NCBI GenBank assembly: GCA_030390025.1
Contig: CM059431.1
Span: 134,976,001-135,040,000, forward strand
Direction: 5' to 3'
DNA: 64,000 nucleotides
Source of the DNA: Squalus acanthias
Lineage: Eukaryota
In this document: positions 19,672-51,413 of the stretch, in pieces
How positions within the stretch are numbered: the stretch's first letter is position 1
How the letters are laid out: each line of letters begins with the position of its first letter
Position numbers and translations under genes: made by a program
Notes under the pieces: model-generated
What the model was told of the DNA's origin: nothing
Databases searched by the model: none
What the model saw: the letters and a program-made list of their open reading frames with translations, nothing else

Positions 19672-19782
19672 GATAATCTTGGCTGCAGATTTACACCTCT
19701 TTGCAGGCCCAGGTCAAACGCAGCAATGAGCAGGGTGTGGCTGTGAAGGATGATGGACCCTCCCCTTTAAGAACTGGACGGC

Positions 19783-20084: not shown

Positions 20085-21445
20085 AACTTTTTCACCATAA
20101 CCCTGCAAATGAGTCCTTTTCAAGTACATATCCAATTGTATTTTGAAATCGTTCCTATGTAATCTGCTTCCACCACCTTTTCACGTAGTGCGTTCCATAT
20201 CTTAACAACCCTCTGAGTGAAATCATTTCTTCTCATTTCGCCTCTAGTTCTTTTGCCAATTATTTTAAAACTATGACCTTTAGTTACCAACCCACTTGCC
20301 AGTGGAAACAGTTTATCCCTACTTGCTCTATCAAAAACCCTCATAATTTGGAATATCTTTATTAGTTCTCCCCTTAACCTTCTCTGCTCTAAGGAGAGCA
20401 ATCCCAGCTTCTCCAATATCTCCACATAACTGAAGTTCCTCATCCCTGGTATCATCCTGGTAAACCTCCCCTGTATCCTTTCCAAGGCCTTGACATCCTT
20501 CCTAAAGTGTTGTGCCCACAATTGTACACAATACTCCACCTGAGGCCTAGCCAGTGATTTGTAAAGGTTTAGCGTGACTTCCTTGTTTTTGTATTTACAA
20601 AGCCAAGTATCCCATATGCTTTCTTTTCTGCCTTATCAACTTGCCCTACAAACTTCAAATATTTGTGAATATACATCCCCCAGTTCCCTTTGCTCTTGCA
20701 CTCCCCTCAAAATAGTACCGTTTAGATTATACTGCCTCTCCATGTTGTTCCTCCGAAGTGCATCACTTCACACTTATCCTCATTAAATTGCATCTGTCAT
20801 GTGTCTTCCCATTTCGCCAGTCTGTCTATGTCCTCCTGAAGTCTGCTACTATCTCCCTCACTATTTACTACGTTGCCAAATTATATATCATTCGTAAACT
20901 TTGAAATTATACTCCCTATACTGAGGTCCAGGTCATTTATATATAACAAGAAAAGCAATGGTCCTAATACTGATCCCTGGGGGACCTCACTGCATACTTC
21001 TCTCCTGTCAGAAAAACATCCATTCACCACTGCTCTCTGCCTCCTATCCAAGTTACCACCGTCCCTTTAATCCCATGTGCAAGGGCACTGGCGGAGTGGC
21101 AGTGGTGGGAGGACGAATGCTGTCATCCTGAGAGAGGACAGTAGATTTGTCCTCCACAGAGCCACTGCCACTACCTTTGTGCGGCACCTCAGCATTCCTA
21201 GCCATCTGTTGGAGGACAGATTGCTGGAACGCTGTGACACACTGCAAGCCCCTGGTAAACCCAGCCACAATGGCAGCAGTCTGAGCTTGCATGAGAGCAG
21301 TCTGAGCTTGCTTCTACTTTCTGAATAAATCTGTTATGAGGTACTTTATGAAATAGCTTTTTGAAAGTACATATATACAACACTACTTTCATCAACCCTC
21401 TCTGTTACTTCATCAAAGAATTCAGTGAGGTTAGTCAGATTTACC
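20085..21445 (-). mobile_element. Decayed CR1 3' fragment
   Basis: Minus ORF 20120-20539 (EYCVQLWAQH...FTQRVV); GSVLGP and HKVPH remnants. Confidence 0.85.
21081..21311 (-). other. Terminus-free internal fragment of a Harbinger Myb/SANT exon 3 inserted into a CR1
   Basis: Similar to 23117-23377. The host CR1 reads CCCATGTGC|TTCTACTTTC across the insert, with TGC at both junctions. Confidence 0.75.
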
Positions 21446-22171
21446 TTATTCTGTGGCAATCTTGCACCCTCTCAAAGTGGAGTCTCTATCACCTTTAGGG
21501 TCATGAATTGATTCAAGGGCAAGAAAACTTTGAGAGGCACAGAGAAAGCATAGAGAGGGTGGCGGGGTGGGGGGGGGGCAGGGTGCTGGTGGCTGGTGGC
21601 TGCAGACTAGCAAGAGGGACTAGCTGAATTCTGCTGAATATATAGGACAAGTTGCTTGAGCAAGAATATGGATAAAAACAGAACTAAAAGCAACTGGCAT
21701 AGATGTAACTAACCATAGTATTGGTTAAAGCTAGTTATAGATAAGTAGGGTGGTTAGCTTAAATGAAACTTACAGATTACATGAATTTGATGGTGAAAGG
21801 CTTAAAGTACTGTCTTGGGCAGACAATTAAATGCCCAGGGGATGACAACTAGAGTACCCATGACTGGGAGCAAGTGGGCTGACCATAACACTTGAAGTCA
21901 GAAGCAAGGCCTTCTCCACTTGCAGTACCACTCCCTGTCACCTCACCAACTTTAAACAACTCTTGAAAGCTCCAAACACTTCCATTAACTTACATACAGC
22001 CAGTAGACATTAATCAGCAACTGATCTCAGTGTGGTTGATGTTCCCTTTAAATATTGCTGGTAGGGGGCAATGTTCCCCCTAATTGTTTTTTGGGTGCGC
22101 AGTCCCTTTAACAGGCTGCACAGCCCATTCAAAGTTTCACGCATGCGTGAAATTTCATGTTGGAAAAGCTC

Positions 22172-22713
22172 TGACCAGAGAGAAGCAGGCAGAGCATGCG
22201 CGTGGCTTTCCCAGGATAGCGGGCTTCCCCATGGTGCAGGGCGCCATCGACTGCACACACATGGCTTTGCGGGCGCCACATCTAAATGCTGAGATGTACC
22301 GCAACCGCAAAGGTTATCACTCGCTGAATGTGCAGTTGGTGTGCGACCGTGCTCAGCACTCATGATGGTGAATGCCCAATATCCTGGCAGCAGTCATGAT
22401 GCTTTCATTCTGCGCCAGTCCGCAGTTCCCTCAGTCTTTGAGCCACCAAGACAAACCAGAGGGTGGCTACTGGGCGACAAGAGCTATCCGCTGACTACCT
22501 GGCTCACGACTCCGCTCCACAACCTAACCACACGTGGACAGCATACGTACAATGAGGGCACAGCCCTTGCCACCAGGCATATGGTGAACAGCTGAAGAGG
22601 AGGAGGAGGAAGAGGAAGCTGAAGAGGAGGAAGCAGAAGGGAGGAGGCAACCCAGACAGCCCCTTTCTGCCTGGGCTGTCTGTGATCAAATCATCCGACT
22701 GAGGTTCCAGTGA
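22172..22713 (+). pseudogene. Harbinger transposase fragment (element F)
   Basis: GAIDCTH, NRKGYHSLNVQLVCD, YPGSSHDAFILRQS and LLGDKSYP motifs. The C-terminal core is deleted. Confidence 0.88.
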
Positions 22714-23380
22714 ACACAACCCCAATTCCACATTCACCATCAGTCCCACACCTTACCCTCCCTCTGTTACTGACCATCACAGCGACCTCTTGGCCACAAT
22801 GCTGAAATTAAAGCCACCACAAAAAAAACATTCTATATCAACTTTATACATCAATCCATCAAATATTACATTAAATCACCCTTGTGTATTCTCTTAGTGT
22901 CTTCTATGTGCCTTTGCCTGTCCTAGTGCTCCTACAAAGTGCTACCCCAGTGGCTGCACCATGGCTGGTGGAAGGCTGCTGACTTTCAGTGGGGGAGGCT
23001 GCAAATGGCCTTGCAGGATAACTTTGAGCAGCTCTGGGTCTAGAAGGCCCGGCTGCGGACGGCGCCACTTTGGCATGGGCGGCAGCAGTCTGGGCTGTCT
23101 GGCTGACAGGCAACAGCAAGGGCACTGGTGGAGTGGCAGTGCTGGGAGTATGAATGTTGTCATCCTGAGAGAGAACAGCAGGTTCGTGCACCACAGAGCC
23201 ACTGCCACTCCCCCGGGGCAGCACCTCAGCAATCCTAGGAATCTGTTGGAGGACAGATTGCTGGGCTGCTGTGACACCCTGCAAACCCTTTCCACACTAG
23301 TAACCGCAGCCACAATGGCAACAGTCTGAACCTGCGTGGCAGCAAGCTGAACCTGCATGAGAGCAGTTTGAGCTTACGTG

Positions 23381-24624
23381 GTATAGACCATCTGACGATG
23401 CCACCTTCCATACCAGTGCTTCCGACATGTCTTCCTTTTTCCTCAACCGAGGATTCCCCTCTATGGTGGTTGACACGGCCCTCGACCGTGTCCGTTCTAT
23501 CTCCCACACTTCTGCCCTCACCCCTGCCCCTCCCTCCCGGAACCACGATAGAGATCCCCTTGTCCTCGCCTTTCACCCCACCAGCCTCCACATTCAACAG
23601 ATCATCCTCCGCCATTTCCGCCACCTCCAGCGTGATCCCACCACCAAACGCATCTTCCCCTCACCTCCCCTTTCAGCATTCCACAGGGACCGCTCCCTCC
23701 GCGACACCCTAGTCCACTCCTCTATCGCCCCCAGCACCCCTTCCCCTTCGCCCGGCACCTTCCCGTGCAAGCGCAGGAGATGCAACACATGCCCTTATAC
23801 CTCCCCTCTTCCCACTGTCCAGGGCCCCAAACACCCCTTCCAGGTGAAACAGCGATTTACTTGTACTTCTTGCAATTTAGTGTACTGTATTCGCTGCTCA
23901 CGATGTGGTCTCCTCTACATTGGGGAGAGCAAACGCAGATTGGGTGTCCGCTTTGCGGAACACCTCCGTTCAGTCCGTAAGGGGGACCCCGAGCTCCCGG
24001 TGGCCTGTCACTTTAATTCTCCGCTCCACTCCCACTCTGACCTCACCGTCCTCGGCCTCTTGCATTGCTCCATGGAAGCTCAGCGTAAGCTCGAGGAACA
24101 GCACCTCATCTTTCATTTAGGCACCCTACAGCCCTCTGGACTCAACATCGAGTTCAACAATTTCAGATCATAACCTCAGGCCCCTATCACATTTATATAT
24201 TTTTATTTTATTTTTTCATCCACCCTTTTGTTTGGCCTTTTTTTCCCTCCCAGAAGCTGGCAGCTGTCCTTCATTCTGCCAGCGCATCTCACACTTCATC
24301 TAGCCTCAACCTGTCACATTACCACCTCCTCTTGCCTTGATTATCTCTTAATATCTCTCAATGTCTCTTAATCTCTCCTGCTTTCTATCCTACCACTGAC
24401 CTTCCCTTTTGTTCTTTCATCCCCTCCCCCTTTTCCCAGCTTTATACTTGCTTTAAATCTATTTAATTTCCTGCTTTTTTCCAGTTCTGACGAAAAGACT
24501 TCGACTGGAAACGTTAACTCTGTTTTTCTCTCCACAGATGCTGCCTGGCCTGCTGAGTTTTTCCAGCGTTTTCTGTTGTTATTTCGGATTTCCAGCATCC
24601 GCAGTATTTTGCTATCGTTTTTCG
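23381..24624 (+). mobile_element. Penelope-like retroelement, 5'-truncated (RT C-terminus, GIY-YIG endonuclease, tail)
   Basis: ORF 23427-24173 has CKRRRCNTC, NLVYCIRC..CGLLYIGE, RFAEH, VACHFN and PSGLN. Flanked by GAGCTTACGTG (23370-23380) and GAGCTTGCGTG (24625-24635). Confidence 0.93.
24483..24519 (+). ncRNA. Putative minimal type-I hammerhead ribozyme motif (decayed) in the Penelope tail
   Basis: AGTT-CTGACGA-(14 nt)-GAAA-CGTT-AACT. Both core boxes are in order, stem I is AGTT/AACT and stem III is the palindrome ACGT. Stem II is imperfect. Confidence 0.5.
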
Positions 24625-25545
24625 GAGCTTGCGTGACTTCAGTCTGAGCTTCCACTGCAGTACTCAGACATTGGGTCGCTTCCGCCTGTGCTGCAATGGA
24701 AGCTGAGACATCGGCCATCAGACCCTGCATTATGGTTGGGTCCACAAGTGCGTTAGTGGAGTTCACCATCAATTCCATGCTGGAAATCATGGGCTCCAAG
24801 CTCTGTACAACGCCCTGTGCAAGGTTGGTGCTGGACTCCTCCATGCTCCTTGACATTGCACTCAGGCATTCTGGCAGGCCTGCCAATGTACCAAGCATTT
24901 CATTGTGCATACCCATCAGCCTTCTTCTGTAGGCCGCCCCATCGAAAGCCTCATCTGAGTCCTTTGCAGCAGAACTCATGTGCGACCTCGTGCTCCAGGG
25001 AGCTGGCACCTGCACTACACTTTCCCCCTGCCTTGGCTGCAAGCCACTCGTGCCCAGTGTCGCACCACGTGCAGATCCCGTGTCTAACCTATCCTCTAAA
25101 ATATGCGGAGTGTCAGTATCTGAGCTGGTGGCTCAAGGTGTGAAATCGAGTGACGCTGTGATCACTTTCTTCCTGCTCCTCCACCAGTGCCTGGCCAGGT
25201 GGCAGTTCTTGGCTATCTGAAAGGAGAATGCACAAGGGTAAGCTTGTGGTGATGGGACATGGGAAAGCAAGAGGGGCATGCTTATGCCATCTGCAGCTTG
25301 TAAGTCAGAAGAGATAGCGGGAAGAGGGGGAAGTGGGATGTGAGAAGAAGGATTAGATATGAGGATACCATCGTCTTGGATAGCTTCAGGCCTGCCGCTG
25401 GCCACGGCTTTAGTGATTGTCCTGCCAAGAATAGTCAGCACCGTCTCCTCCAGGAGGGGGAGATTATGTAAGCAGGCCTGTGTCCATTCACGAAGCCCCT
25501 GCTGGCCCAGATTGTGAGTGACCTTGTTCTGTAAGAGAAAGGAAA

Positions 25546-28500
25546 GTGTGTCAGTGAGTGTGGTGCAATGTGTTTGGGTGCAGTGTGTTAGTGAGTGTGG
25601 TGCAATGTGTTTGGGTGCAGTGTGTCAGTGAGTGTGGTGCAATGTGTTTGGGTGAAGTGTGTCAGTGAGTGTGGTGCAATGTGTTTGGGTGAAGTGTGTC
25701 AGTGAGTGTGGTGCAATGTGTTTGGGTGAAGTGTGTCAGTGAGTGTGATGCAATGTGTTTGGGTGAAGTGTGTCAGTAACTGTGGTGCAATGTGTTTGGG
25801 TGAAGTGTGTTAGTGAGTGTGGTGCAATGTGTTTGGGTGCAGTGTGTCAGTGAGTGTGGTGCAATGTGTTTGGGTGAAGTGTGTCAGTGAGTGTGGTGCA
25901 ATGTGTTTGGGTGAAGTGCGTCAGTGAGTGTGGTGCAATGTGTTTGGGTGAAGTGTGTCAGTGAGTGTGATGCAATGTGTTTGGGTGAAGTGTGTCAGTA
26001 AGTGTGGTGCAATGTGTTTGGGTGAAGTGTGTCAGTGAGTGTGGTGCAGTGTGTTTGGGTGAAGTGTGTCAGTGAGTGTGGTGCAATGTGTTTGGGTGAA
26101 GTGTGTCAGTGAGTGTGGTGCAGTGTGTTTGGGTGAAGTGTGTCAGTGAGTGTGGTGCAATGTGTTTGGGTGCAGTGTGTCAGTGAGTGTGGTGCAGTGT
26201 GTTTGGGTGAAGTGTGTCAGTGAGTGTGGTGCAATGTGTTTGGGTGAAGTGTGTCAGTGAGTGTGGTGCAATGTGTTTGGGTTATGTGTGTCAGTGAGTG
26301 TGGTGCAATGTGTTTGGGTGAAGTGTGTCAGTGAGTGTGGTGCAATGTGTTTGGGTGAAGTGTGTCAGTGAGTGTGGTGCAATGTGTTTGGGTGAAGTGT
26401 GTCAGTGAGTGTGGTGCAATGTGTTTGGGTGAAGTGTGTCAGTGAGAGTGGTGCAATGTGTTTGGGTGAAGTGTGTCAGTGAGTGTGGTGCAATGTGTTT
26501 GGGTGAAGTGTGTCAGTGAGTGTGGTGCAGTATGTTTGGGTGAAGTGTGTCAGTGAGTGTGGTGCAATGTGTTTGGGTGAAGTGTGTCAGTGAGTGTGGC
26601 GCAATGTGTTTGGGTGAAGTGTGTCAGTGAGTGTGGTGCAAAGTGTTTGGGTGATTCGTGTGTCAGTGAGTGTGGTGCAATGTGTTTGGGTGAAGTGTGT
26701 CAGTGAGTGTGGTGCAATGTGTTTGGGTGAAGTGTGTCAGTGAGTGTGGTGCAATGTGTTTGGGTAAAGTGTGTCAGTGAGTGTGGTGCAATGTGTTTGG
26801 GTGAAGTGTGTCAGTGAGTGTGGTGCAATGTGTTTGGGTGAAGTGTGTCAGTGAGTGTGGTGCAATGTGTTTGGGTGATGTGTGTGTCAGTGAGTGTGGT
26901 GCAATGTGTTTGGGTGAAGTGTGTCAGTGAGTGTGGTGCAATGTGTTTGGGTGAAGTGTGTTAGTGAGTGTGGTGCAATGTGTCTGGGTGAAGTGTGTTA
27001 GTGAGTGTGGTGCAATGTGTTTGGGTGAAGTGTGTCAGTGAGTGTGGTGCAATGTGTTTGGATGATGTGTGTGTCAGTGAGTGTGGTGCAATGTGTTTGG
27101 ATGATGTGTGTGTCAGTGAGTGTGGTGCAATGTGTTTGGGTGAAGTGTGTCAGTGAGTGTGGTGCAATGTGTTTGGGTGAAGTGTATCAGTGAGTGTGGT
27201 GCAATGTGTTTGGATGATGTGTGTGTCAGTGAGTGTGGGTGCAATGTGTTTGGGTGAAGTGTGTCAGTGAGTGTGGTGCAATGTGTTTGGGTGAAGTGTG
27301 ACAGTGAGTGTGGTGCAATGTGTTTGGGTGAAGTGTGTCAGTGAGTGTGGTGCATTGTGTTTGGGTGAAGTGTGACAGTGAGTGTGGTGCAATGTGTTTG
27401 GGTGAAGTGTGTCAGTGAGTGTGGTGCAATGTGTTTGGGTGAAGTATGTCAGTGAGTGTGGTGCAGTGTGTTTGGGTGAAGTGTGTCAGTGAGTGTGGTG
27501 CAGTGTGTTTGGGTGAAGTGTGTCAGTGAGTGTGGTGCAATGTGTTTGGGTGAAGTGTGTCAGTGAGTGTGGTGCAATGTGTTTGGGTGAAGTGTGTCAG
27601 TGAGTGTGGTGCAATGTGTTTGGGTGAAGTGTGTCAGTGAGTGTGGTGCAATGTGTTTGGGTGAAGTGTGTCAGTGAGTGTGGTGCAATGTGTTTGGGTG
27701 AAGTGTGTCAGTGAGTGTGGTGCAATGTGTTTGGGTGAAGTGTGTCAGTGAGTGTGGTGCAATGTGTTTGGGTGATATGTGTCAGTGAGTGTGGTGCAAT
27801 GTGTTTGGGTGATGTGTGTGTCAGTGAGTGTGGTGCAATGTGTTTGGGTGAAGTGTGTCAGTGAGTGTGGTGCAATGTGTTTGGGTGAAGTGTGTCAGTG
27901 AGTGTGGTGCAATGTGTTTGGGTGAAGTGTGTCAGTGAGTGTGGTGCAATGTGTTTGGGTGAAGTGTGTCAGTGAGTGTGGTGCAATGTGTTTGGGTGAA
28001 GTGTGTTAGTGAGTGTGGTGTAATGTGTTTGGGTGAAGTGTGTCAGTGAGTGTGGTGCAATGTGTTTGGGTGAAGTGTGTCAGTGAGTGTGGTGCAATGT
28101 GTTTGGGTGAAGTGTGTCTGTGAGTGTTGGCAGTGTGTTTGGGTGAAGTGTGTCAGTGAGTGTGGTGCAATGTGTTTGGGTGAAGTGTGTCAGTGAGTGT
28201 GGTGCAATGTGTTTGGGTGAAGTGTGTCAGTGAGTGTGGTGCAATGTGTTTGGGTGAAGTGTGTCAGTGAGTGTGGTGCAATGTGTTTGGGTGAAGTGTG
28301 TGTCAGTGAGTGTGGTGCAATGTGTTTATGCGAAGTGTGTCAGTGAGTGTAATGCAATGTGTTTGGGTGAAGTGTGTCAGTGAGTGTGGTGCAATGTGTT
28401 TGGGTGCAGTGTGTCAGTGAGTGTGGTGCAATGTGTTTGGGTGAAGTGTGTCAGTGAGTGTGGTGCAATGTGTTTGGGTGCAGTGTGTCAGTGAGTGTGG

Positions 28501-31500
28501 TGCAATGTGTTTGGGTGATGTGTGTGTCAGTGAGTGTGGTGTAATGTGTTTGGGTGAAGTGTGTTAGTGAGTGGTGCAATGTGTTTGGGTGAAGTGTGTC
28601 ACTCAGTGTGGTGCAATGTGTTTGGGTGCAGTGTGTCAGTGAGTGTGGTGCAATGTGTTTGGGTGAAGTGTGTCAGTGAGTGTGGTGCAGTGTGTTTGGG
28701 TGAAGTGTGTCAGTGAGTGTGGTGCAATGTGTTTGGGTGAAGTGTGTCACTGAGTGTGGTGCAATGTGTTTGGGTGCAGTGTGTCAGTGAGTGTGGTGCA
28801 GTGTGTTTGGGTGAAGTGTGTCAGTGAGTGTGGTGCAGTGTGTTTGGGTGAAGTGTGTCAGTGAGTGGTGCAATGTGTTTGGGTGAAGTGTGTCAGTGAG
28901 TGTGGTGCAATGTGTTTGGGTGAAGTGTGTCAGTGAGTGTGGTGCAATGTGTTTGGGTGAAGTGTGACAGTGAGTGTGGTGCAATGTGTTTGGGTGAAGT
29001 GTGTCAGTGAGTGTGGTGCAATGTGTTTGGGTGAAGTGTGTCAGTGAGTGTGGTGCAATGTGTTTGGGTGAAGTGTGTCAGTGAGTGTGGTGCAATGTGT
29101 TTGGGTGAAGTGTGTCAGTGAGTGTGGTGCAATGTGTTTGGGTGAAGTGTGTTAGTGAGTGTGGTGCAATGTGTTTGGGTGAAGTGTGTCAGTGAGTGTG
29201 GTGCAATGTGTTTGGGTGAAGTGTGCCAGTGAGTGTGGTGCAATGTGTTTGGGTGAAGTGTGTCAGTGAGTGTGGTGCAATGTGTTTGGGTGAAGTGTGT
29301 CAGTGAGTGTGGTGCAATGTGTTTGGGTGAAGTGTGTTAGTGAGTGTGGTGCAATGTGTTTGGGTGAAGTGTGTCAGTGAGTGTGGTGCAATGTGTTTGG
29401 GTGCAGTGTGTCAGTGAGTGTGGTGCAATGTGTTTGGGTGAAGTGTGTCAGTGAGTGTGGTGCAGTGTGTTTGGGTGAAGTGTGTCAGTGAGTGTGGTGC
29501 AATGTGTTTGGGTGAAGTGTGTCAGTGAGTGTGGTGCAATGTGTTTGGGTGAAGTGTGTCAGTGAGTGTGGTGCAATGTGTTTGGGTGAAGTGTGTCAGT
29601 GAGTGTGGTGCAATGTGTTTGGGTGAAGTGTGTTAGTGAGTGTGGTGCAATGTGTTTGGATGATGTGTGTCAGTGAGTGTGGTGCAATGTGTTTGGGTGA
29701 TGTGTGTCAGTGAGTGTGGTGCAGTGTGTTTGGGTGAAGTGTGTCAGTGAGTGTGGTGCAATGTGTTTGGGTGCAGTGTGTCAGTGAGTGTGGTGCAATG
29801 TGTTTGGGTGAAGTGTATCAGTGAGTGTGGTGCAATGTGTTTGGGTGAAGTGTGTCAGTGGGTGTGGTGCAATGTGTTTGGGTGAAGTGTGTCAGTGAGT
29901 GTGGTGCAATGTGTTTGGGTGAAGTGTGTCAGTGAGTGTGGTGCAATGTGTTTGGGTGAAGTGTGTCAGTGAGTGTGGTGCAATGTGTTTGGGTGAAGTG
30001 TGTCAGTGAGTGTGGTGCAATGTGTTTGGGTGATGTGTGTGTCAGTGAGTGTGGTGCAATGTGTTTGGGTGATGTGTGTGTCAGTGAGTGTGGTGCAATG
30101 TGTTTGGGTGAAGTGTGTCAGTGAGTGTGGTGCAATGTGTTTGGGTGAATTTTGTCAGTGAGTGTGGTGCAATGTGTTTGGGTGAAGTGTGTCAGTGAGT
30201 GTGGTGCAATGTGTTTGGGTGAAGTGTGTCAGTGAGTGTGGTGCAATGTGTTTGGGTGAAGTGTGTCAGTGTGTGTGGTGCAATGTGTTTGGGTGAAGTG
30301 TGTCAGTGAGTGTGGTGCAATGTGTTTGGGTGAAGTGTGTCAGTGAGTGTGGTGCAATATGTTTGGGTGAAGTGTGTCTGAGTGTGGTGCAATGTGTTTG
30401 GGTGAAGTGTGTCATTGAGTGTGGTGCAATGTGTTTGGGTGAAGTGTGTCAGTGAGTGTGGTGCAATGTGTTTGGGTGATGTGTGTGTCAGTGAGTGTGG
30501 TGCAATGTGTTTGGGTGAAGTGTGTCAGTGGGTGTGGTGCAATGTGTTTGGGTGAAGTGTGTTAGTGAGTGTGGTGCAATGTGTTTGGGTGAAGTGTGTC
30601 AGTGAGTGTGGTGCAATGTGTTTGGGTGAAGTGTGTCAATGAGTGTGGTGCAATGTGTTTGGGTGATATGTGTCAGTGAGTGTGGTGCAATGTGTTTGGG
30701 TGATGTGTGTCAGTGAGTGTGGTGCAATGTGTTTGGGTGATGTGTGTCAGTGAGTGTGGTGCAATGTGTTTGGGTGAAGTGTGTCAGTGAGTGTGGTGCA
30801 ATGTGTTTGGGTGAAGTGTGTCAGTGAGTGTGGTGCAATGTGTTTGGGTGAAGTGTGTCAGTGAGTGTGGTGCAATGTGTTTGGGTGAAGTGTGTCAGTG
30901 AGTGTGGTGCAATGTGTTTGGGTGAAGTGTGTGTCAGTGAGTGTGGTGCAATGTGTTTATGCGAAGTGTGTCAGTGAGTGTAATGCAATGTGTTTGGGTG
31001 AAGTGTGTCAGTGAGTGTGGTGCAATGTGTTTGGGTGAAGTGTGTCAGTGAGTGTGGTGCAGTGTGTTTGGGTGAAGTGTGTCAGTGAGTGTGGTGCAAT
31101 GTGTTTGGGTGAAGTGTGTCAGTGACTGTGGTGCAATGTGTTTGGGTGAAGTGTGTCAGTGAGTGTGGTGCAGTGTGTTTGGGTGAAGTGTGTCAGTGAG
31201 TGTGGTGCAATGTGTTTGGATGATGTGTGTGTCAGTGAGTGTGGTGCAATGTCTTTGGGTGAAGTGTGTTAGTGAGTGTGGTGCAATGTGTTTGGGTGAA
31301 GTGTGTCAGTGAGTGTGGTGCAATGTGTTTGGGTGAAGTGTGTTAGTGAGTGGTGCAATGTGTTTGGGTGAAGTGTGTCACTGAGTGTGGTGCAACGTGT
31401 TTGGGTGCAGTGTGTCAGTGAGTGTGGTGCAATGTGTTTGGGCGAAGTGTGTTAGTGAGTGGTGCAATGTGTTTGGGTGAAGTGTGTCACTGAGTGTGGT

Positions 31501-34500
31501 GCAATGTGTTTGGGTGCAGTGTGTCAGTGAGTGTGGTGCAATGTGTTTGGGTGAAGTGTGTCAGTGAGTGTTGTGCAGTGTGTTTGGGTGAAGTGTGTCA
31601 GTGAGTGTGGTGCAATGTGTTTGGGTGAAGTGTGTCACTGAGTGTGGTGCAATGTGTTTGGGTGCAGTGTGTCAGTGAGTGTGGTGCAATGTGTTTGGGT
31701 GCAGTGTGTCAGTGAGTGTGGTGCAATGTGTTTGGGTGCAGTGTGTCAGTGAGTGTGGTGCAATGTGTTTGGGTGAAGTGTGTCAGTGAGTGTGGTGCAG
31801 TGTGTTTGGGTGAAGTGTGTCAGTGAGTGGTGCAATGTGTTTGGGTGAAGTGTGTCAGTGAGTGTGGTGCAATGTGTTTGGGTGAAGTGTGTCAGTGAGT
31901 GTGGTGCAATGTGTTTGGGTGATGTGTGTCAGTGAGTGCGGTGCAATGTATTTGGGTGAAGTGTGTCAGTGAGTGTGGTGCAATGTGTTTGGGTGAAGTG
32001 TGTCAGTGAGTGTGGTGCAATGTGTTTGGGTGAAGTGTGTCAGTGAGTGTGGTGCAATGTGTTTGGGTGAAGTATGTCAGTGAGTGTGGTGCAATGTGTT
32101 TGGGTGAAGTGTGTCAGTGAGTGTGGTGCAATGTGTTTGGGTGAAGTGTGTCAGTGAGTGTGGTGCAATGTGTTTGGGTGAAGTGTGTCATTGAGTGTGG
32201 TGCAATGTGTTTGGGTGAAGTGTGTCAGTGAGTGTGGTGCAATGTGTTTGGGTGAAGTGTGTGTCAGTGAGTGTGGTGCAATGTGTTTATGCGAAGTGTG
32301 TCAGTGAGTGTAATGCAATGTGTTTGGGTGAAGTGTGTCAGTGAGTGTGGTGCAGTGTGTTTGGGTGAAGTGAGTCAATGAGTGTGGTGCAAAGTGTTTG
32401 GGTGAAGTGTGTCAGTGAGTGTGGTGCAATGTGTTTGGGTGCAGTGTGTCAGTGAGTGTGGTGCAGTGTGTTTGGGTGAAGTGTGTCAGTGAGTGTGGTG
32501 CAATGTGTTTGGATGATGTGTGTGTCAGTGAGTGTGGTGCAATGTGTTTGGGTGAAGTGTGTCAGTGAGTGTGGTGCAGTGTGTTTGGGTGAAGTGTGTC
32601 AGTGAGTGTGGTGCAATGTGTTTGGGTGAAGTGTGTCAGTGAGTGTGGTGCAATGTGTTTGGGTGAAGTGTGTCTGTGAGTGTTGGCAGTGTGTTTGGGT
32701 GAAGTGTGTCAGTGAGTGTGGTGCAATGTGTTTGGGTGAAGTGTGTCAGTGAGTGTGGTGCAATGTGTTTGGGTGAAGTGTGTCAGTGAGTGTGGTGCAG
32801 TGTGTTTGGGTGAAGTGTGTCAGTGAGTGTGGTGCAATGTGTTTGGGTGAAGTGTGTCAGTGAGTGTGGTGCAATGTGTTTGGGTGAAGTGTGACAGTGA
32901 GTGTGGTGCAATGTGTTTGGGTGAAGTGTGTCAGTGAGTGTGGTGCAATGTGTTTGGGTGAAGTGTGTCAGTGAGTGTGGTGCAATGTGTTTGGGTGCAG
33001 TGTCAGTGAGTGTGGTGCAATGTGTTTATGCGAAGTGTGTCAGTGAGTGTGGTGCAATGTGTTTAGGTGAAGTGTGTTTCAGTGAGTGTGGTGCAGTGTG
33101 TTTGGGTGAAGTGTGTCAGTGAGTGTGGTGCAATGTGTTTGGGTGAAGTGTGTCTGTGAGTGTGGTGCAATGTGTTTGGGTGAAGTGTGTCAGTGAGTGT
33201 GGTTCAATGTGTTTGGGTGAAGTGTGTCAGTGAGTGTGGTGCAATGTGTTTGGGTGGAGTGTGTCAGTGAGTGTGGTGCAATGTGTTTGGGTGAAGTGTG
33301 TCAGTGAGTGTGGTGCAGTGTGTTTGGGTGAAGTGTGTCAGTGAGTGTGGTGCAATGTGTTTGGGTGAAGTGTGTCAGTGAGTGTGGTTCAATGTGTTTG
33401 GGTGATGTGTGTCAGTGAGGGTGGTGCAATGTGTTTGGGTGAAGTGTGTCAGTGAGTGTGGTGCAATGTGTTTGGGTGAAGTGTGTCAGTGAGTGTGGTG
33501 CAATGTGTTTGGGTGAAGTGTGTCAGTGAGTGCGTTGCAGTTTTTTTGGGTGAAGTGTGTCAGTGAGTGTGGTGCAATGTGTTTGGGTGAAGTGTGTCAG
33601 TGAGTGTGGTGCAGTGTGTTTGGGTGAAGAAAGTCAATGAGTGTGGTGCAATGTGTTTGGGTGAAGTGTGTCAGTGAGTGTGGTGCAAAGTGTTTGGGTG
33701 AAGTGTGTCAGTGAGTGTGGTGCAATGTGTTTGGGTGAAGTGTGTCAGTGAGTGTGGTGCAATGTGTTTGGGTGAAGAAAGTCAATGAGTGTGGTGCAAT
33801 GTGTTTGGGTGAAGTGTGTCAGTGAGTGTGGTGCAATGTGTTTGGGTGAAGTGAGTCAATGAGTGTGGTGCAATGTGTTTGGGTGAAGTGTGTCAGTGAG
33901 TGTGGTGCAATGTGTTTGGGTGAAGTGTGTCTGTGAGTGTTGGCAGTGTGTTTGGGTGAAGTGTGTCAGTGAGTGTGGTGCAATGTGTTTGGGTGAAGTG
34001 TGTCAGTGAGTGTGGTGCAATGTGTTTGGGTGAAGTGTGTCAGTGAGTGTGATGCAATGTGTTTGGGTGAAGTTTGTCAGTGAGTGTGGTGCAATTTTTT
34101 GGGTGAAGTGTGTCAGTGAGTGTGGTGCAATGTGTTTGGGTGAAGTGTGTCTGTGAGTGTTGGCAGTGTGTTTGGGTGAAGTGTGTCAGTGAGTGTGGTG
34201 CAATGTGTTTGGGTGAAGTGTGTCAGTAAGTGTGGTGCAATGTGTTTGGGTGAAGTGTGTCAGTGAGTGTGGTGCAATGTGTTTGGGTGAAGTGTGTCAG
34301 TGAGTGTGGTGCAATTTTTTGGGTGAAGTGTGTCAGTGAGTGTGGTGCAATGTGTTTGGGTGAAGTGTGTCAGTGAGTGTGGTGCAATGTGTTTGGGTGA
34401 AGTGTGTCAGTGAGTGTGGTGCAATGTGTTTGGGTGAAGTGTGTCAGTGAGTGTGGTGCAATATGTTTGGGAGAAGTGTGTCAGTGAGTGTGGTGCAATG

Positions 34501-34960
34501 TGTTTGGGTGAAATGTGTCAGTGAGTGTGGTGCAATGTGTTTGGGTGAAGATGTGTCAGTGAGTGTGGTACAGTGTGTTTGGGTGAAGTGTGTCAGTGAG
34601 TGTGGTGCAGTGTGTTTGGGTGATGTGTGTCAGTGAGTGTGGTGCAATGTGTTTGGGTGAAGTGTGTCAGTGAGTGTGGTGCAGTGTGTTTGGGTGAAGT
34701 GTGTCAGTGAGTGTGGTGCAATGTGTTTGGGTGAAGTGTGTCAGTGAGTGTGGTGCAATGTGTTTGGGTGAAGTGTGTCAGTGAGTGTGGTGCAGTGTGT
34801 TTGGGTGAAGTGTGTCAGTGAGTGTGGTGCAATGTGTTTGCGTGAAGTGTGTCAGTGAGTGTGGTGCAATGTGTTTGGGTGATGTGTGTCAGTGAGTGTG
34901 GTGCAGTGTGTTTGGGTGAAGTGTGTCAGTGAGTGTGGTGCAATGTGTTTGCGTGATGTG
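25546..34960. repeat. 37-bp minisatellite, roughly 250 tandem units
   Basis: Consensus GTGTGTCAGTGAGTGTGGTGCAATGTGTTTGGGTGAA repeated head to tail with point variants and 2-nt indels; no spacers. Confidence 0.98.
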
Positions 34961-35372
34961 CCTGTCGTGGTTAAATGACTGACAGTGTGTGCAAGCTGTG
35001 AGATGTGGGTGTAAGTCTTGCAACAGTGGTAAGTGTGTGAGGGTGAGGTGAAGTCGTGTTTGGCAGAGATTGTTGGTAGGTGAGTAATGGGGGTGTGGTG
35101 CATTGAGCAGTCTGTGAGGCTAGTGGTGCAGATGGTGGGATATCGCATTTGAAGATTAATTCACTGACCTTGACCGCTTAACTGATGTCATGAAATTTCT
35201 TCCCGCACTGCATCCAGCTTCTCAGGGCGACACTGCTGCCATTTTATTTTGAGTTTGCCTGAAGGGCCTCCTGGCCCGCTGTGGGAATAGGACCTCTCAC
35301 CTCCTTTCCACCTCCTGCACCAAGGCCCTCAGTGCTGCATCAGAGAACCTTGCTGCACGCTCTCTCCCCTGT

Positions 35373-35505
35373 TCAGCTGCTAAGGCCCTAAGCGCTGGAA
35401 TTCCCTCCCTAAACCTCTCTGCCTCTCTATATCTCTTTCCTCCTTTAAGACGCTTCTTAAAACCTACCTCTTTGACCAAGCATTTGGTCATCTGCTGTAA
35501 TATCT
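35373..35505 (+). mobile_element. L2 LINE 3'-end fragment
   Basis: Translates as WNSLPKPL...SSFKTLLKTYLFDQAF, a typical L2 ORF2 C-terminus. Confidence 0.75.
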
Positions 35506-35525
35506 CCTTTTTCCTGTTTGAACCT

Positions 35526-36852
35526 CGACAAATATAGGAACAGGAGTAGGCCATTTAGCCCCTCGAGCCTGTTTTGCCATTCAATGAGATCATGGCTGAT
35601 TTGTGACCTAACTCCATAGACCTGCCTTTGCTACATATCCCTTATTACCTTTGGTTAATAAAAATCTATCAATCTCCAATTTAAAATTAACCTAGCATCA
35701 ATTGTCGTTTGTGGAAGAGAGTTTCAAACTTCTACCACCCTTTGTGTGTTGGAGTGTTTCTTAACTTCACTCCTGAAAGTTCTGGCTCTAATTTTTAGAC
35801 GATGTCCCCAGTCCAAGACTCCCCAACCAGCGGAAATAGTTTCTCTCTATCTACCCTATCAGTTCCCCTTAATGGGCCAGATATTCCGATCCCTACGGGT
35901 GGGTACGTGCTGTGTACCCACCCGTAGGGACATCGGAAATGCTAGTTTCAGGCATGCACTGCGCATGTGCTGGAAACCGGCATTTCCGATCTGTCAAGAA
36001 TGCTCTTGACAGATCCTCCCGCTGCCCGGGAGAAGGGCCTCTGCGGGCGGACACTTCCACTTTTTGGAGACCCTCCGCCCGCAGAAAACCCTTACAATTC
36101 TTGCGCCTGGTAAAAGCAGGCATAAGCCCTGCTTTTACCAGGATAAGAGTTGAAAAAAGTTTTTAAAACATTTTTCACTGATTTATCATTTAAAAATACT
36201 TTAAAAAAAAGGTAAGTTTATTTTTGGCCCTGTAAAAAACTTTAATTATTTTTTTCAAAAATTTTAATTTTTGTTTAAAATAGTTAATTTATTGTAATTT
36301 CAAGTCATTTTAAAAATGTGATTTAAAAAAAAAAATTATTTAAAGTTTTACTATGTTTTGGGGGTGATCTCCATTCATATATTTGACAGGTCTTCCTGTC
36401 AAATGTATGAAGGGAGATTTCCTTCTGTGATTGGCTCCCCATGGCCCACATGATCCCAGGGACGCTGTGAACTACATGCGTCTCTGGGATACGTGGGCCC
36501 TGCGCACCTGCAGTTTGGAGAGGCCCAGCATTGGAACTGTGCGCCTCCCGGGAGCCCTCAGGTAAGGGCGCAGATTTTTCCAGATCGCAGTCCTCCGCCC
36601 GCGGGAGACCTGCGATCGGAATATCTGGGCCAATATCTTGAAAACGTCAATTAAATCACACTGTAACCTTCTAAATTCCAGGGAATACAACCCTAGTTTG
36701 TGTAATCTCTCCTCGTAATTTAACCCTTGGAGTCCAGGTATCATTCTGCATAATCTATGCTGCATTCCCTCCAAGGGCAATATATACTTCCTAAGGTGTG
36801 GTGCCCAGAATTGAAAACCGTACTCTAGATGTGGTCCAACCAGGGTAAACCT
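35526..36852 (-). mobile_element. CR1 3' fragment hosting MITE C, flanked by an 18-bp direct repeat
   Basis: PHLEYGFQFWAPHLRK...LEFRRL. TTTTTCCTGTTTGAACCT occurs at 35508-35525 and 36853-36870. Confidence 0.85.
35874..36631. mobile_element. Harbinger-type MITE C (758 bp) with several internal hairpins
   Basis: TIR GGGCCAGATATTCCGATC / GATCGGAATATCTGGGCC (17/18). TSD AAT at 35871-35873 and 36632-36634. The host CR1 is contiguous after removal. Confidence 0.92.
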
Positions 36853-37664
36853 TTTTTCCTGTTTGAACCTAGGCAAACAGTGAAGGTAGGCTATTTGACC
36901 ATAGTTATTGTCCCAGTCAAATCCAATCCTATCCTTGCCCGATATCCACAAGCATGCCTGTTTTCCTGCAAACCACCTCATTTTCTCCTCTGTAGCCCAT
37001 GGGTGCTAACTCAGAACAGACTGAGATTCAAAATTTCCCCAGGTACATCAAAGTAACAAAGTTATCTCAAAATACAGTTCAAACATTTTTTTTTCAAACC
37101 AATTTACTCATTGGAAGTATATTGTAGCTGTTATAAATAGAACAGGTCAAGGCCTATCACCGCAATATAATAAATATCCCCAGTGGTGAAGCTGACCATA
37201 TCCACTCACGAATTGATCAATGTGGTGAATTATCCAGTCAGCATCAAATGTGGGGAAATTATTAAATCACACTGTTGCCCTTGACATATCCTTTGTATGT
37301 CCAGCACTTTTTCAAATAAAACATAATAAATTAAAAAAAGCAATTTCAAATTTGTAATTTAATCTCTGGGATCAGGTGATGGTATAAACTATCCAATTCT
37401 CTACGGTGTCTTTAAACTGTAGGCAGTAGTTTGTCAGCATTAGAGAGGTGTAAGCCAGCAGTACCAAGATATTTTGCCAGCTCTGTACCACTTAGTACTT
37501 GGATAAAGCTCTGTGCATCAAAACCTAAATCCGCATACAAAGTCCCACTCATTAACACATTAATCTTATGACATTGTTAATGTTAGGAAAGAATTAACTG
37601 TCCTGCTGGCTCTTGATTAGCACTAAAAATGTAAAGGCAATTCACTCAATCTTGAAAAACTTGA

Positions 37665-38020
37665 AAACTAATTGTCCCGAGGCATGCACTAATAATTCAG
37701 AGAATGTGAGTTCAAATTCCACCGTAACAGCTTGATATTTGAATTCAGTTTTACAAAATCTGGAAATAAAAAGCTGGTATCAGTAAAAGTGACCATGAAA
37801 CTTTACATTGTTGTAAAAACTAAAACCTAACTGATTCACTAATGTCCTTAGGGAAGGAACCCTGCTGTCCTTACCTGGTCTGGCCTATATGTGACTCCAG
37901 TCCCACACCAAAATATGGATTCTTTGCTGCCCTCTGAAGTGGCCTAGCAAGTTATATAGGGCAACCAGTAGCAGTCAATAAATGTTGGCCTTGCCAGTGC
38001 CACCCATAAGAATGAAATAC
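37665..38020 (+). mobile_element. tRNA-type SINE, second (older) copy
   Basis: B-box-like GAGTTCAAATTCC at ~37708-37720. Body and AATAAATG-TGGCCTTGCCAG tail match 19783-20074. Confidence 0.75.
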
Positions 38021-38127
38021 AAAAATCTATACTGTTGCAGTCATAACCCTCAGTTCCACACTACTCTTCATCTCATCTGATGCTTTAACAAAGATCTATT
38101 TTTCTTTCTTTCAGATAGAAAGATACT

Positions 38128-38380
38128 GGGGGTAGAGTTTTGTCTCGTTTATGTTAGGAATGCAATCCAGGCGAAATCGGCCGAATCAGCGCAAAACATT
38201 GGGGAAATGTAATCATGAGTTATGCCCAAAACCATTTATTTTGTGTTTTCCGCAATCTTTTATGCTGGTTTACGATTCAATTCACCCACAAAACTGGTCA
38301 CACCCCAAGTTGACATTGCGAGATTCCACCAATTGCGCTGGTGAGGGAAGGCTCTTCAAATTGCACTCGTTTTCTTAAGC
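38128..38380. mobile_element. Possible truncated Harbinger/MITE end
   Basis: Starts GGGGGTAGAGTTT, like the other Harbinger termini, followed by CpG-richer sequence. No partner TIR found. Confidence 0.35.
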
Positions 38381-39341
38381 ACAAAGGCACTAGTATGCAC
38401 ATTTTAAAAGTTTTTTTCATATCAAAAAATATTTAATTTACTAAGAAACTGTCTAGTACATAAAAACATAAGAAGAACATAAGAAACAGGAGCAGGGTAG
38501 GCCATATGGCCCCTCGAGCCTGCTCCGCCATTCAATAAGATCATGGCTGATCATCGACCTCAACTCCACTTTCCCGCCCGATCTCCATATCCCTTGATTC
38601 TCCTAGAGTCCAAAAATCTATCTATCTCAACCTTGAATATACTTAAAGACTCAGCATCCATAGCCCTCTGGGGCAAAGAATTCCAAAGATTCACAACCCT
38701 CTGAATGAAGAAATTCCTCCTCATCTCGGTCTTAAATGGCCTACCCGTTAACCTGAGACTATACCCCTTAGTTCTAGACACTCCAGCCAGGGGAAAACAA
38801 CCTCTCAGCATCTATCCTCTCAATCCCCTTCAGAATCTTGTATGTTTCAATCTCTCATTCTTCTAAACTCCAGAGAGTATCGGCCCATTCTACACAATCT
38901 CTCGTCATAGGACAGCCCTCTCATCCCAGGAATCAATCTAGTGAACCTTCGTTACACCGTCTCCAAGGCAAGTATATCCTTCCTTAGATAAGGAGACCAG
39001 AACTGTGCACAGTACTCCAGGTGTGGTCTCACCAAGGCCTGTACAATTGCAGCAAGACTTCCTTACTCTTATACTCCAACCCCCTTGAAATAAAGGCCAA
39101 CATGCCATTTGCCTTCCTTATTGCTTGCTGTACCTGTATGCTAGCTTTCTGTGTTTCTTGCACGAGGACACCCAAATCTCTCTGAACACCAATATTTAAA
39201 AGTTTCTCACCATTTAAAAAATATGCTGTTTTTTTATTCTTCCTACCAAAATGAATAACCTCTCATTTCGCTACATTATACTCCATCTGCCACCATACTC
39301 CCCACTCACTTAGTCTATCTATAGCCCTTTGCAGACTCTTT

Positions 39342-40003
39342 GGGCTGGATTTTGAATGACCCATGGAGTCGGGTTTGGAGGCGTGTGGGGGGTTAAATTT
39401 GCGGGGTTGGGGTTTCCGACCCCAACCTGCCTCCACGCAATTTTGACAAAATCAGTCGCGGGGTTCCCAACTCTCTCCCGCCTCCAAGAGGCGGGAGAGG
39501 CCATTACAGCCCTTAACAAGCCCTAAATTGGGTCTGTAATGCTATTTTGAATCGTTGTAGCTAGTTTAACCCTTTTCTGACGTGAAGTACACCTGGTGTG
39601 AAACACTCCAGTGAAACCTGGCGGGAGCACAAGTGGATAGCTGACTATGAGCTGCAGGTCCACTATTATAACGGAGATGTGATGAAGGTGGTAGTAGTAG
39701 GTCTCTCTCTCTCTCTCACACACATATTTGCATCCAGTCCCACTCACATCAGAAGCAATGCAGACAGGTCCTCTCTCACCAGTAGCCAGACAATCTGAGA
39801 GCAGGCACTCAGCAATGATGACATCATCAGAGGCGGGTTTCAGACTGAAACCACTAATTAGTTCATGGGTTCCCACATGCTGCAACTCAATTGCCCAATT
39901 AAGTGAAAATTGCATCAGGCATCCACATTAATCTGGAGTCGGGGGGGAAACACGAAATGCGGATTACACGACCCCAACCCGACCCCAAGACAAAATCCAG
40001 CCC
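39342..40003. mobile_element. Harbinger-type MITE D (662 bp)
   Basis: Perfect 13-bp TIR GGGCTGGATTTTG / CAAAATCCAGCCC. TSD TTT at 39339-39341 and 40004-40006. Confidence 0.92.
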
Positions 40004-41995
40004 TTTGTGTTCTGCTCACAGCTTACTGTCCCGCCTAGCTTTGTATCGTCAGCAAACTTGGATACATTATACTCTAACCCTTCATCCAGGTCATTAATAT
40101 AGATTGTAAATAACTGAGGCCCCAGCACTGATCCTTGCGGCACCCCACTAGTTACAGCCTGCCAACCTGAAAAAGACCCGTTTATCCCGACTCTCTGTTT
40201 TCTGTCCGTTAACCAATCCTCTATCCATGCTAATATATTACCCCCAACTCCATGAGCTCTTATCTTGTGTAATAACCTTTTATGTGGCACCTTATTGAAT
40301 GCCTTTTGGAAATTCAAATATACTATATCCACTGGTTCCCCTTTATCTACCCTACTAGTTACATCCTCAAAAAACTCGAATAAATTTGTCAAACATGATT
40401 TCCCTTTCATGTTGACTGTGCCTAATCATGTTATGATTTTCTAAGTGCCCTGATACCACTTCCTTAACAATGGATTCCAGCATTTTCCCGACGACTGATG
40501 TCAGGCTAACTGGCCTGTAGTCCCCGGTTTTCTCTCTTCCTCCTTTCTTGAATAGCGGTGTTACATTTGCTACCTTCCAATCTCTGGGACCGTTCTAGAT
40601 GCTAGGGAATTTTGGAAGATCAAAACCAATGCATCCACTATCTCTGCAGCCACCTCTTTTAGAACCCTAGGATGTAGGCCGTCAGGTCCAGGGGATTTGA
40701 CGGCTTTTAGTCCCATTAGTTTCTCTAATATTTTTCTCTACTTATATTAATTACGTTGAGTTCCTCACCCTCATTAGACCATTGGTTCCCCACCATTTTT
40801 GTTATGCTTTTTGTGTCTTCGACTGTGAAGACAGATACAAAATATTTGTTTAATGTTTCTGCCATTTCCTTATTCCCCATAATAATTTCTCCTGTCTCAG
40901 CCTCTAAGAGATCAATGTTTACTTTTGCTACTCTCTTCCTTTTTACATACTTGTAGAAGCTCTTACAATCTGTTTTTAATTTCTTGCTAGTTTTCTCTCA
41001 TATTCTATTTTTTCCCTTTTTATCAACTTTTTGGTAATCCTTTGCTGCTTTCTGAAACTCTCCCAATAAATAGTGGTGGGAAAGGTTCAAGTGAGGGGAA
41101 ATTTAGAAAGTTAAAGAGAAAGGACAGGGCAATAGTGCAGGGTAGCGATGTGGGCAATGAAAACCAGAGTGTGACAGGAAGGGACAGAGCGTACAAACAT
41201 AAGCTCAGAGTAAGGAAAAATGATAAAAAGACAAAATTAAAGGCTCTTTATCTGAATGCATGCAGCGTTCATAACAAGATAGATGATTTGACAGCACAAA
41301 TAGAAATAAATGGGTATGATCTAATACCCATCACAGAGACATGGTTGCAATATGACCAAGGCTGGGAACTGAATATTCAGGAGTATTTGACATTTTGGAA
41401 GGATAGACAGAAAGGAAAAGGAGGTGGGGTGGCTCTGTTAATAAAGGATGAGATCAGTACAGTAGTGAGAAATGATCTTGGCTCGCAAGTTCCAGATGTA
41501 GAATCAATTTGGGTGGAGGTAAGAAATAGTAAGGGAAAGAAGGCACTGCTGCGAGTCGTCGATAGGCCCCCTAACAGTAGCTACACTACAGGACAGAGAA
41601 TAAACCAAGAAATAATGGGGGCTTGTAAGAAAGGTACTGCAATAATCGTGGGCGATTTTAATCTTCATATAGATTGGACAAATCAAATTGGCAAAAGCAG
41701 CCTTGAGGACGAGATCATAGAGTATATTCGGGACAGTTTCTTGGAATAGTACATTGTGGAACTGACCAGGGAACAGGCTATTTTAGATCTAGTAATGTGT
41801 AATGAAACAGGATTAATTAATGATCTCATAGTAAAGGATCCTCTCGGGAAGAATGATCATAAAATTATAGAATTCCACATTCAGTTTGAAGGTGAGAAAC
41901 TTGGGTCTGAAACTAGAGTATTAAACTTAAATAAAGGCAATTACAAAGATATGAGGAGAGTTGGCTGGGAAAGTAAATTAGAAGGTAAAACGGTA

Positions 41996-51334: not shown

Positions 51335-51413
51335 CACTGAAGACATGGCTCATGACACCCTTGAGAAGACCAAGTACTGAGGCCCAGGAGAGATACAATG
51401 AAAGCCACGTTTC

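Follow-up and report, generated by a model that had tools for sequence, protein, structure and literature searches.

A 254-unit minisatellite probably derived from the 3′ end of a Harbinger Myb/SANT intron in a decayed shark element

Results

A Harbinger remnant with a broken Myb/SANT gene

The window analysed here, a 64-kb stretch of Squalus acanthias DNA, contains a Harbinger element (F) in which both a DDE transposase and a Myb/SANT-like gene, the pair found in autonomous PIF/Harbinger elements, are present as convergent remnants. The Myb/SANT gene lies on the minus strand. Its exon 1 remnant (35169–35371) lacks a start codon, carries a TGA (35299–35297), a frameshift with deletion and a TAA (35180–35178), and is 58% and 50% identical to shark Myb-like proteins in two frames; its match to PF13873 (E 0.054) is below the cut-off. 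At the expected site of the start codon the remnant adjoins a plus-strand LINE 3′-end fragment (35372 to approximately 35500), which we take from its translated text to belong to L2/CR1. Exon 2 (25369–25528, 160 nt) is in frame after a phase-0 intron and is followed by the intron 2 donor at 25368. The first part of exon 3 (24641–25216) has a frameshift near 25135 and 55% identity to P0001; it is split from the last part (22900–23360) by an insertion with approximate borders at 23361 and 24640. This insertion includes a Penelope-type GIY-YIG reading frame (PF01541, E 0.0013, below the cut-off), a second copy of which, 91% identical, lies at 44134–44918. The transposase fragment (22156–22586, plus strand) is truncated and frameshifted, with 61–67% identity, in two frames, to the PF13359 transposase piece of the sister element E.

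P0001 and P0002 are UniRef entries annotated as "myb-related transcription factor, partner of profilin-like" from Pristiophorus japonicus. Exon 3 of F is 54–56% identical to them over 165 residues, and the position of the exon 1/2 junction is the same. The protein search retained two of 324 candidates of near-equal length and none of 1,129 longer ones. Searches of metagenome contigs, which were not weighed as evidence, gave 210 pattern hits but no confirmed relative for P0001, and no match to a 22-nt pattern from the repeat unit described below. No Rfam match was found over 22000–37000. Scanning of the flanks one at a time, with left and right ends unpaired, revealed no terminal inverted repeats, and comparison of 35371–42000 with the upstream regions of copies D, E and H gave a 25-bp hit but no extended match.

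Read from its sequence, the Myb/SANT gene is a dead pseudogene, broken in several independent ways: a start replaced by a LINE, two stops, two frameshifts and the Penelope-type insertion. With these lesions and a truncated transposase, F has none of the intact frames of an autonomous element. The pseudogene status of the host gene was absent from an earlier, sequence-only reading of this DNA.

Intron 1 is filled by a 37-bp minisatellite

Intron 1 runs from a donor GT at 35168 to an acceptor AG ending at 25529 on the minus strand, as the sequence-only reading had placed it, and is 9,640 nt long and in phase 0. Its 5′ part (34958–35168, 211 nt) is unique, is homologous to intron 1 of E, and ends in an imperfect copy of the last bases of the repeat unit. 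The array follows at 25546–34957. The polypyrimidine tract and acceptor AG (25529–25545, 17 nt) are single-copy and lie outside the unit. The array had been described as running directly into this tract; the adjacency holds, although the letters then quoted contained one T too many.

The 9.4-kb, 37-bp minisatellite of the earlier reading was confirmed by the TRF run that it had called for, which returned a single array at 25544–34960 (period 37, 254.1 copies, 95% matches, score 16974). Parsing unit by unit gave 254 units of 37 bp, 9,412 bp in total, arranged head to tail and thus within the 10–100 bp range of minisatellite units. The units are C/A-rich on the gene sense strand. The consensus occurs exactly in 113 of the 254, the mean substitution from consensus is 2.2% per base, and 54 distinct substitutions were found. 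Variant units are interspersed in the manner expected from unequal exchange or conversion: a rare three-unit haplotype repeats at spacings of 36, 71 and 107 units, and rare adjacent pairs recur six times, against a mean of 0.3 (maximum 4) in 300 permutations. Since the window contains no N and the longest exact repeat within the array is 273 bp, a simple assembly duplication is argued against.

A single unit in the sister element and in other family copies

Intron 1 of E (19235–19442, minus strand, 208 nt) carries one homologue of the unit, present as a single copy close to the 3′ end of the intron. Alignment of the unique 5′ part of the F intron with the E intron gave a z of 5.9, a score reached by none of 1,000 shuffles; the unit itself gave a z of 3.6 (3 of 1,000 shuffles), the match falling at the 3′ end of the E intron. 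Reduced to one unit, the F intron would measure 265 nt, in agreement with the estimate of about 260 bp in the sequence-only reading and its comparison with the 208 bp of E. No homology to the F intron was seen in the introns of copies D and H (z −1.3 to 0.9) or in a stretch examined from copy G.

Four public sequencing runs (X1, X3, X9 and X18), kept as contigs, were compared with this region; being built from short words, such contigs give neither array lengths nor locus counts. The rows listed from them comprise 24 of 1,056 loose ends, 15 of 204 joints and 40 of 208 variants. Loose contig ends occur behind position 25580, directly upstream of one unit, in all four runs (in 136/9,562 of the matching contigs in X1, 202/11,016 in X3, 317/6,264 in X9 and 2/118 in X18); as an end at this position can also be the 5′ junction of an array, these counts need not all stand for one-unit copies. 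By eye, the X1, X3 and X9 consensuses match the unique intron flank of F at 24–25 of 30 bases, and X18 record 12 reads through exon 2, the tract and one unit before departing from the F stretch. As contig ends in four runs pass from a unit into one and the same unique stretch of intron, copies with a single unit exist in the family. Together with the E alignment, this makes it well supported by sequence comparison that the unit originated at the 3′ end of intron 1 in the Harbinger Myb/SANT gene, as had been proposed along with the presence of a single unit there in other family copies. A foreign satellite inserted in the intron was considered and rejected, the unit being collinear with the single-copy intron end of E.

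Tandem units at other loci

Among the joints listed, go-back joints of 38–80 bp were found in X1, X3 and X18. X1 record 8 extends from exon 2 through two units and differs at 28 of 182 letters, so that it represents a different locus. Tandem forms are thus seen at other loci, in runs of more than one organism, with one distinct locus carrying at least two units. The ratio of second-unit to tract depth, a crude measure, is 2.2 and 2.8 in organisms A and B and 0.83 in organism D, a signal that varies from organism to organism. The unique DNA of F differs from the X1 majority at 30 of the 38 places listed in 446 bp, or at least 6.7% by hand count. The consensus of the array is identical to the run majority; the sole in-unit differences listed, at 25581 and 25589, are sites where the last two units of F deviate from F's own consensus. 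The occurrence of tandems at other loci makes it probable that the tandem state predates the F copy or recurs. While the intronic origin of the unit suggested by the sequence-only reading stands, its birth in this particular copy is doubtful, given the tandems at other loci and in more than one organism.

The stretch compared with the runs carried only two units, which left no way for the 35169/25528 junction to show up among the joints. X18 was taken as RNA by guess; one deep contig crosses the acceptor unspliced, and the rows listed include no joint in which exon 1 is spliced to exon 2 or exon 2 to exon 3. Neither observation was weighed as evidence.

Branch-point content of the unit

In the last unit, overlapping CTCAC and CTGAC (25551–25558) form a predicted branch point whose A bases, at positions −27 and −23 relative to the exon, lie where branch points are usually found. 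Judged from these motifs, the amplified unit holds the strongest branch-point candidate. The F intron has 241 occurrences of CTCAC and 215 of CTGAC, and 249 of the 254 units have at least one yUnAy; the statement that each unit carries a branch-point-like motif is accordingly correct for all units but the remaining few. The density is, however, that of the surroundings: the unit has 2 yUnAy in 37 nt, as against 10 in 211 (5′ part of F), 10 in 202 (D) and 9 in 196 (H), or roughly 1.8 per 37 nt for three out of four intron stretches examined outside the repeat, and 94% of 5,000 shuffled units have one. Enrichment of the motif in the unit was rejected on these grounds, and a special branch-point content of the satellite is not supported, the unit being level with the background of these C/A-rich introns. 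This background argument fails for E: its intron contains no more than 3 yUnAy in 208 nt, and the 10 nt carrying CTGAC are missing from it.

The figure of about 250 candidate branch points was an overstatement, as only the last unit is followed by the tract and AG. Pyrimidine runs of at least 7 number three in the array, each more than 8 kb from the acceptor and none in the AG-free zone. That zone, about 250 nt long, is a by-product of the unit itself being AG-free. Branch-point positions are not spared from substitution (T30, 5; G31, 13; A32, 5; C29, 12). The case for a splicing role of the array is weak, and a functional effect in the F copy is moot because the gene is dead.

Discussion

Origin of the array

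We think it likely, with good confidence, that the array is a neutral transposon-derived minisatellite raised by slippage or unequal exchange from a segment of intron 1. The family's C/A-rich intron 1 ends in about 55 nt made up of one 37-nt segment, the tract and the AG. An imperfect short direct repeat, GACA..CAC with a 2-nt gap, stands before the first unit and ends each unit, a pattern scored without a chance control; the unit is in this way flanked, imperfectly, by the kind of repeat on which slippage models depend. Slippage or unequal exchange between these repeats could have produced the first duplication. The unit would end just before the pyrimidine tract because the short repeat lies there, and would hold pentamers resembling branch points because these are found in almost every 37-nt stretch of the F intron. 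As the tandem state is present at several loci, it may have arisen in a progenitor and travelled by transposition, or it may recur at a weak spot. In F, repeated unequal exchange or conversion would have raised the tandem to 254 units. This growth was probably unconstrained, the gene being presumably already dead, although the data fit either order of gene death and array growth.

That the array instead expanded once, from F's own single unit after F had died and unrelated to the tandems elsewhere, appears unlikely. With an array divergence of 2.2% below the copy divergence of at least 6.7%, the array is, by divergence, younger than the copy, and no other long array was seen directly in the short-word contigs, which cannot give array lengths. 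Yet a unit taken from a decayed copy should show private changes, whereas the array consensus equals the run majority (suggestive only, the chance of zero private changes being about 8% at 6.7%), and X1 record 8 shows two or more units at a separate locus. It is hardly credible that the array is an unrelated satellite that entered the intron, or an artefact of assembly. The unit is low in complexity and the array length is that of the assembly, but insertion is already contradicted by the collinearity with E, the listed loose ends beside the unit are by eye all Harbinger intron, exon 2 or more units, and the 54 substitutions and 273-bp longest exact repeat speak against an artefact.

An effect of the array on splicing is also quite improbable. 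On this view, additional units in active elements would have supplied decoy branch points or CA-rich protein sites, slowing intron 1 removal and thereby adjusting or shutting down the Myb-like helper, and F would be a relic. The unit stops exactly at the pyrimidine tract and contains the likely real branch point predicted at −23/−27, the acceptor is preceded by the AG-free zone, and tandem forms are common to several loci. Each unit has seven ACAC/CACA words, and hnRNP L was reportedly found to bind CA repeats by Hui et al. in 2003. Against this stand the background motif density, the 94% of shuffled units with a yUnAy, the unspared branch-point positions and the dead gene. Distant branch points are recognised through an adjacent pyrimidine tract (PMC1431707); F shares their long AG-free zone, but its three pyrimidine runs are far off and no upstream branch point has an adjacent tract. 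The repeated splice signals of the human F7 minisatellite can function when tested, but are normally silent (PMC1557585). In its boldest form, which we rate as very unlikely, the idea would be that minisatellites are born repeatedly at the 3′ end of intron 1 in a shark Harbinger family that is abundant: active elements would have carried multi-unit introns whose unit number tuned helper splicing, through decoy branch points or CA-rich sites, as a length-coded transposition brake, and F would be an overgrown relic.

On the neutral reading, the locus offers a clean case of minisatellite birth, with a single-copy parent, a flanking short repeat, a locus with two or more units and an array of 254 units, all within one transposon family. 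With its many copies, the family could serve as a natural series in which to ask if arrays are recurrent or inherited. Greater importance would follow only from arrays that are present in intact copies and alter splicing there.

Comparison with known systems

The available text of PMC9179366 describes fish PIF/Harbinger elements with a DDE transposase and a Myb/SANT-like gene, as in F, and does not use the word "tandem"; unlike them, F is fragmentary, neither of its genes is intact, and the search for terminal repeats found none. Intron 7 of human F7 has a 37-bp VNTR with 5′ pseudo-sites (PMC1557585). Both are 37-bp intronic minisatellites that repeat part of a splice signal beside the authentic one, but F7 repeats a complete donor site in a live gene, whereas F repeats a degenerate pentamer, without tract or AG, in a pseudogene. 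F thus has no splice site within the unit of an expressed gene, and the equal unit length is a coincidence.

In the model of Haber and Louis (1998), as given in PMC6947457, minisatellites arise between flanking repeats of 5–10 bp. The GACA..CAC of F resembles such a repeat, but is imperfect, and the first duplication is inferred rather than observed. The same text speaks of minisatellites of "up to 100 units", with no agreed limit; the F array, with 254, is longer. Transposon-derived minisatellites and satellites include miDNA4 (from a Xenopus tropicalis MITE), Xstir from Xmix and ENSAT1 from Atenspm, and minisatellites from Alu, B1 and MaLR are also described (PMC9659126 and PMC6947457); the word "Harbinger" is absent from the main text of both reviews. 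As in these cases, the tandem unit was once a short stretch inside a mobile element, and one-unit and multi-unit copies coexist in one family; in F that stretch belongs to a spliceosomal intron in a Harbinger with two genes, as opposed to a MITE body, TIR, LTR or UTR. The F array looks like an unusually traceable new case of this already known class, an ordinary repeat and not a splicing device.

Structure of the array and of its host intron

Intron 1 of the Myb/SANT gene of Harbinger element F lies on the minus strand, with the donor GT at 35168 and the acceptor AG ending at 25529. Its 9,640 nt comprise 211 nt of unique sequence, 9,412 nt of array and 17 nt of pyrimidine tract plus AG; reduced to one unit, the intron would measure 265 nt. 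TRF identified a single period-37 array (25544-34960; 254.1 copies, 95% matches), and unit-by-unit parsing resolved 254 units (25546-34957), 113 of them identical to the consensus and 31 carrying an indel, with a mean substitution of 2.2% per base. These values bear out the numbers of the sequence-only reading, whose observation as a whole was confirmed; the junction between array and tract is as it described, except that its quoted sequence held one T too many in the tract. The window contains no N and no exact repeat within the array is longer than 273 bp, which makes a simple duplication by the assembly unlikely. Intron 1 of all four Myb copies (14890-15130, 56430-56623, 34958-35168 and 19235-19442) shares a strong C/A bias of the sense strand, even between subfamilies without alignable intron homology.

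Two of 324 candidate proteins matched the F gene, both automatic UniRef models labelled Pristiophorus japonicus. The F exon 1 translation ends ...KKFHDIS*AVK and exon 2 starts NKVTHN...; the models read KKLNDLTRLVK-GKVADN at this position. Exon 1 aligns with them in two frames (58% and 50% identity) and exon 3 at 54-56%. By homology to these shark proteins intron 1 is real, its splice being a predicted one. PF13873 scores weakly against F exon 1 (E 0.054) and well against Harbinger copy H (56624-56863; E 2e-12); PF13359 matches the transposase piece of the sister element E (E 2e-31), recognised in the window by its 208-nt intron. Judged by its lesions, the F gene is dead. The start codon is absent from exon 1, which is adjoined at 35372 by a LINE 3'-end fragment that we take to be L2/CR1; exon 1 carries TGA at 35299, a frameshift with a deletion and TAA at 35180. 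In exon 3 the frame shifts near 25135, and an insert of about 1.25 kb that includes a GIY-YIG frame interrupts the exon; the partner transposase persists as a frameshifted fragment (22156-22586). F exon 3 has a short counterpart of 81% similarity at 21079-21311, a further Harbinger piece.

Genomic neighbourhood

At least five Harbinger remnants of divergent subfamilies (14400-15600, 16640-19780, 22150-35370, 49100-53100, 56420-57140) cluster in 45 kb amid many LINE fragments. Upstream of F, a CR1-like LINE contains a 760-bp non-coding element (35874-36631) bounded by terminal inverted repeats of 22 nt (91% complementary). It includes several palindromes and has ATT on either side, resembling a Harbinger MITE flanked by a duplicated 3-bp target. 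Two CR1-like LINE copies (3135-5502 and 53469-56264) are 94-96% identical, the latter breaking the Harbinger copy at 49-53 kb. A comparatively young LINE at 59868-62522 keeps an endonuclease/reverse-transcriptase frame of 884 uninterrupted codons; fragments at 57515-59521 read by eye like Gypsy-type LTR retrotransposon pol (protease, RT, RNase H). Another Harbinger transposase remnant holds three identical 25-bp units in a row (51414-51488), a second, small Harbinger-born tandem.

Origin of the unit

The unique part of the F intron aligned with the E intron (19442-19235) at z 5.9, a score reached by none of 1,000 dinucleotide shuffles. The unit aligned with the end of the E intron, directly preceding its tract, at z 3.6 (3 of 1,000 shuffles); the last ~10 nt of the unit, carrying CTGAC, are missing from E. 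The introns of Harbinger copies D and H showed no homology to the F intron in alignments with shuffles. Contigs of 4 of the 24 listed public sequencing runs were compared with 25100-25625 at 80% likeness, yielding 9,562 matches in X1, 11,016 in X3, 6,264 in X9 and 118 in X18. Loose ends behind 25580, immediately upstream of a single unit, make up the biggest group in X1, X3 and X9 alike (136, 202 and 317 contigs; 2 in X18). Compared by eye, the consensuses of X1, X3 and X9 share 24-25 of 30 bases with the unique flank in F. Part of these ends may be 5' junctions of arrays and not one-unit copies. A clearer case is X18 record 12, where exon 2, tract and one unit are followed by other sequence; in X9, loose sequence downstream of the unit reads as tract, AG and exon 2. 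Together with the E alignment, these contigs place the unit at the same intron position in other family copies, which is the check that the sequence-only reading had proposed, as far as the contigs reach: among the 24 of 1,056 rows listed, every loose end beside the unit is Harbinger sequence or further units.

The contigs also indicate tandem units outside F. Among 15 of 204 joints listed, go-back joints of 38-80 bp occur in X1, X3 and X18 and none in X9; contigs fitting two places number 1,182, 1,627, 233 (X9) and 18 (X18). X1 record 8 runs from exon 2 through two units at depth 9, and its 28 other letters in 182 mark a different locus. X1 record 6 differs from 25343-25562 at 5 of 220 positions at single-copy-like depth; it may be an orthologue of this locus or else a sister copy of recent origin. 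The depth at 25589 (second unit) relative to 25543 (tract) is 2.2, 2.8 and 0.83 in X1, X3 and X9, a crude hint, which gives no copy number, that in organisms A and B arrays are more frequent than in organism D. Of the 38 variant places listed within 446 bp, a hand count finds the unique DNA of F departing from the X1 majority at 30, a divergence of at least 6.7%, the listing covering 40 of 208 variant rows. The only two listed differences within units fall where the last two F units depart from the F consensus, so that the array consensus corresponds to the common unit. This is suggestive of an inherited or exchanged tandem, a better fit than a unit private to F that was amplified after decay; in that case the pattern would arise by chance in about 8%.

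Expansion and splicing

The sequence just ahead of the first unit closes with ACGACAGGCAC, and every unit with CTGACACAC; the two form an imperfect short direct repeat. The slippage model of Haber and Louis, as described in PMC6947457, derives minisatellites from such repeats, and the first duplication would have arisen by slippage between them. Later growth is visible in a rare three-unit haplotype that recurs at distances of 36, 71 and 107 units, as well as in recurring rare unit pairs (6 against 0.3 expected); the array in this copy would have grown after the gene had died.

The sequence-only reading was partly supported: derivation of the unit from the 3' end of a Harbinger Myb intron stands, and an enrichment of branch-point motifs in the unit was rejected. 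The unit holds 2 yUnAy, against ~1.8 per 37 nt in the unique part of F (10 in 211 nt), D (10 in 202) and H (9 in 196), with fewer in E (3 in 208); among 5,000 shuffled units, 94% contained the motif and 57% contained it twice or more. Motif positions in the array are not spared from change. Candidate branch-point adenines of the last unit lie at -27 and -23, the usual position, so that the true branch point probably lies inside the amplified unit. A distant branch point is recognised through the tract next to it (PMC1431707), which would make upstream units poor competitors: T accounts for 6 of the 37 bases of the unit, and the array has only 3 pyrimidine runs of at least 7 and 15 AG, each preceded by at most 4 T in 19 bases. 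The ACAC/CACA words (7 per unit) suggest that any transcript effect would more likely involve hnRNP L binding than branch-point choice. That active elements carried the array as a length-coded splicing brake seems very improbable.

Relation to known systems

A search of titles and abstract openings, mostly of open-access papers, found no report of a minisatellite located within the intron of a Harbinger Myb gene. A human catalogue of splicing-linked tandem repeats exists (PMC10078293). The 37-bp VNTR of human F7 repeats a splice signal whose additional sites are normally silent, according to PMC1557585; this class, like that of distant-branch-point exons, was rejected for the F array. Birth of tandem repeats inside transposons is well known (PMC6947457, PMC9659126), and it is to these transposon-derived minisatellites that the array belongs, alike in kind and in working.
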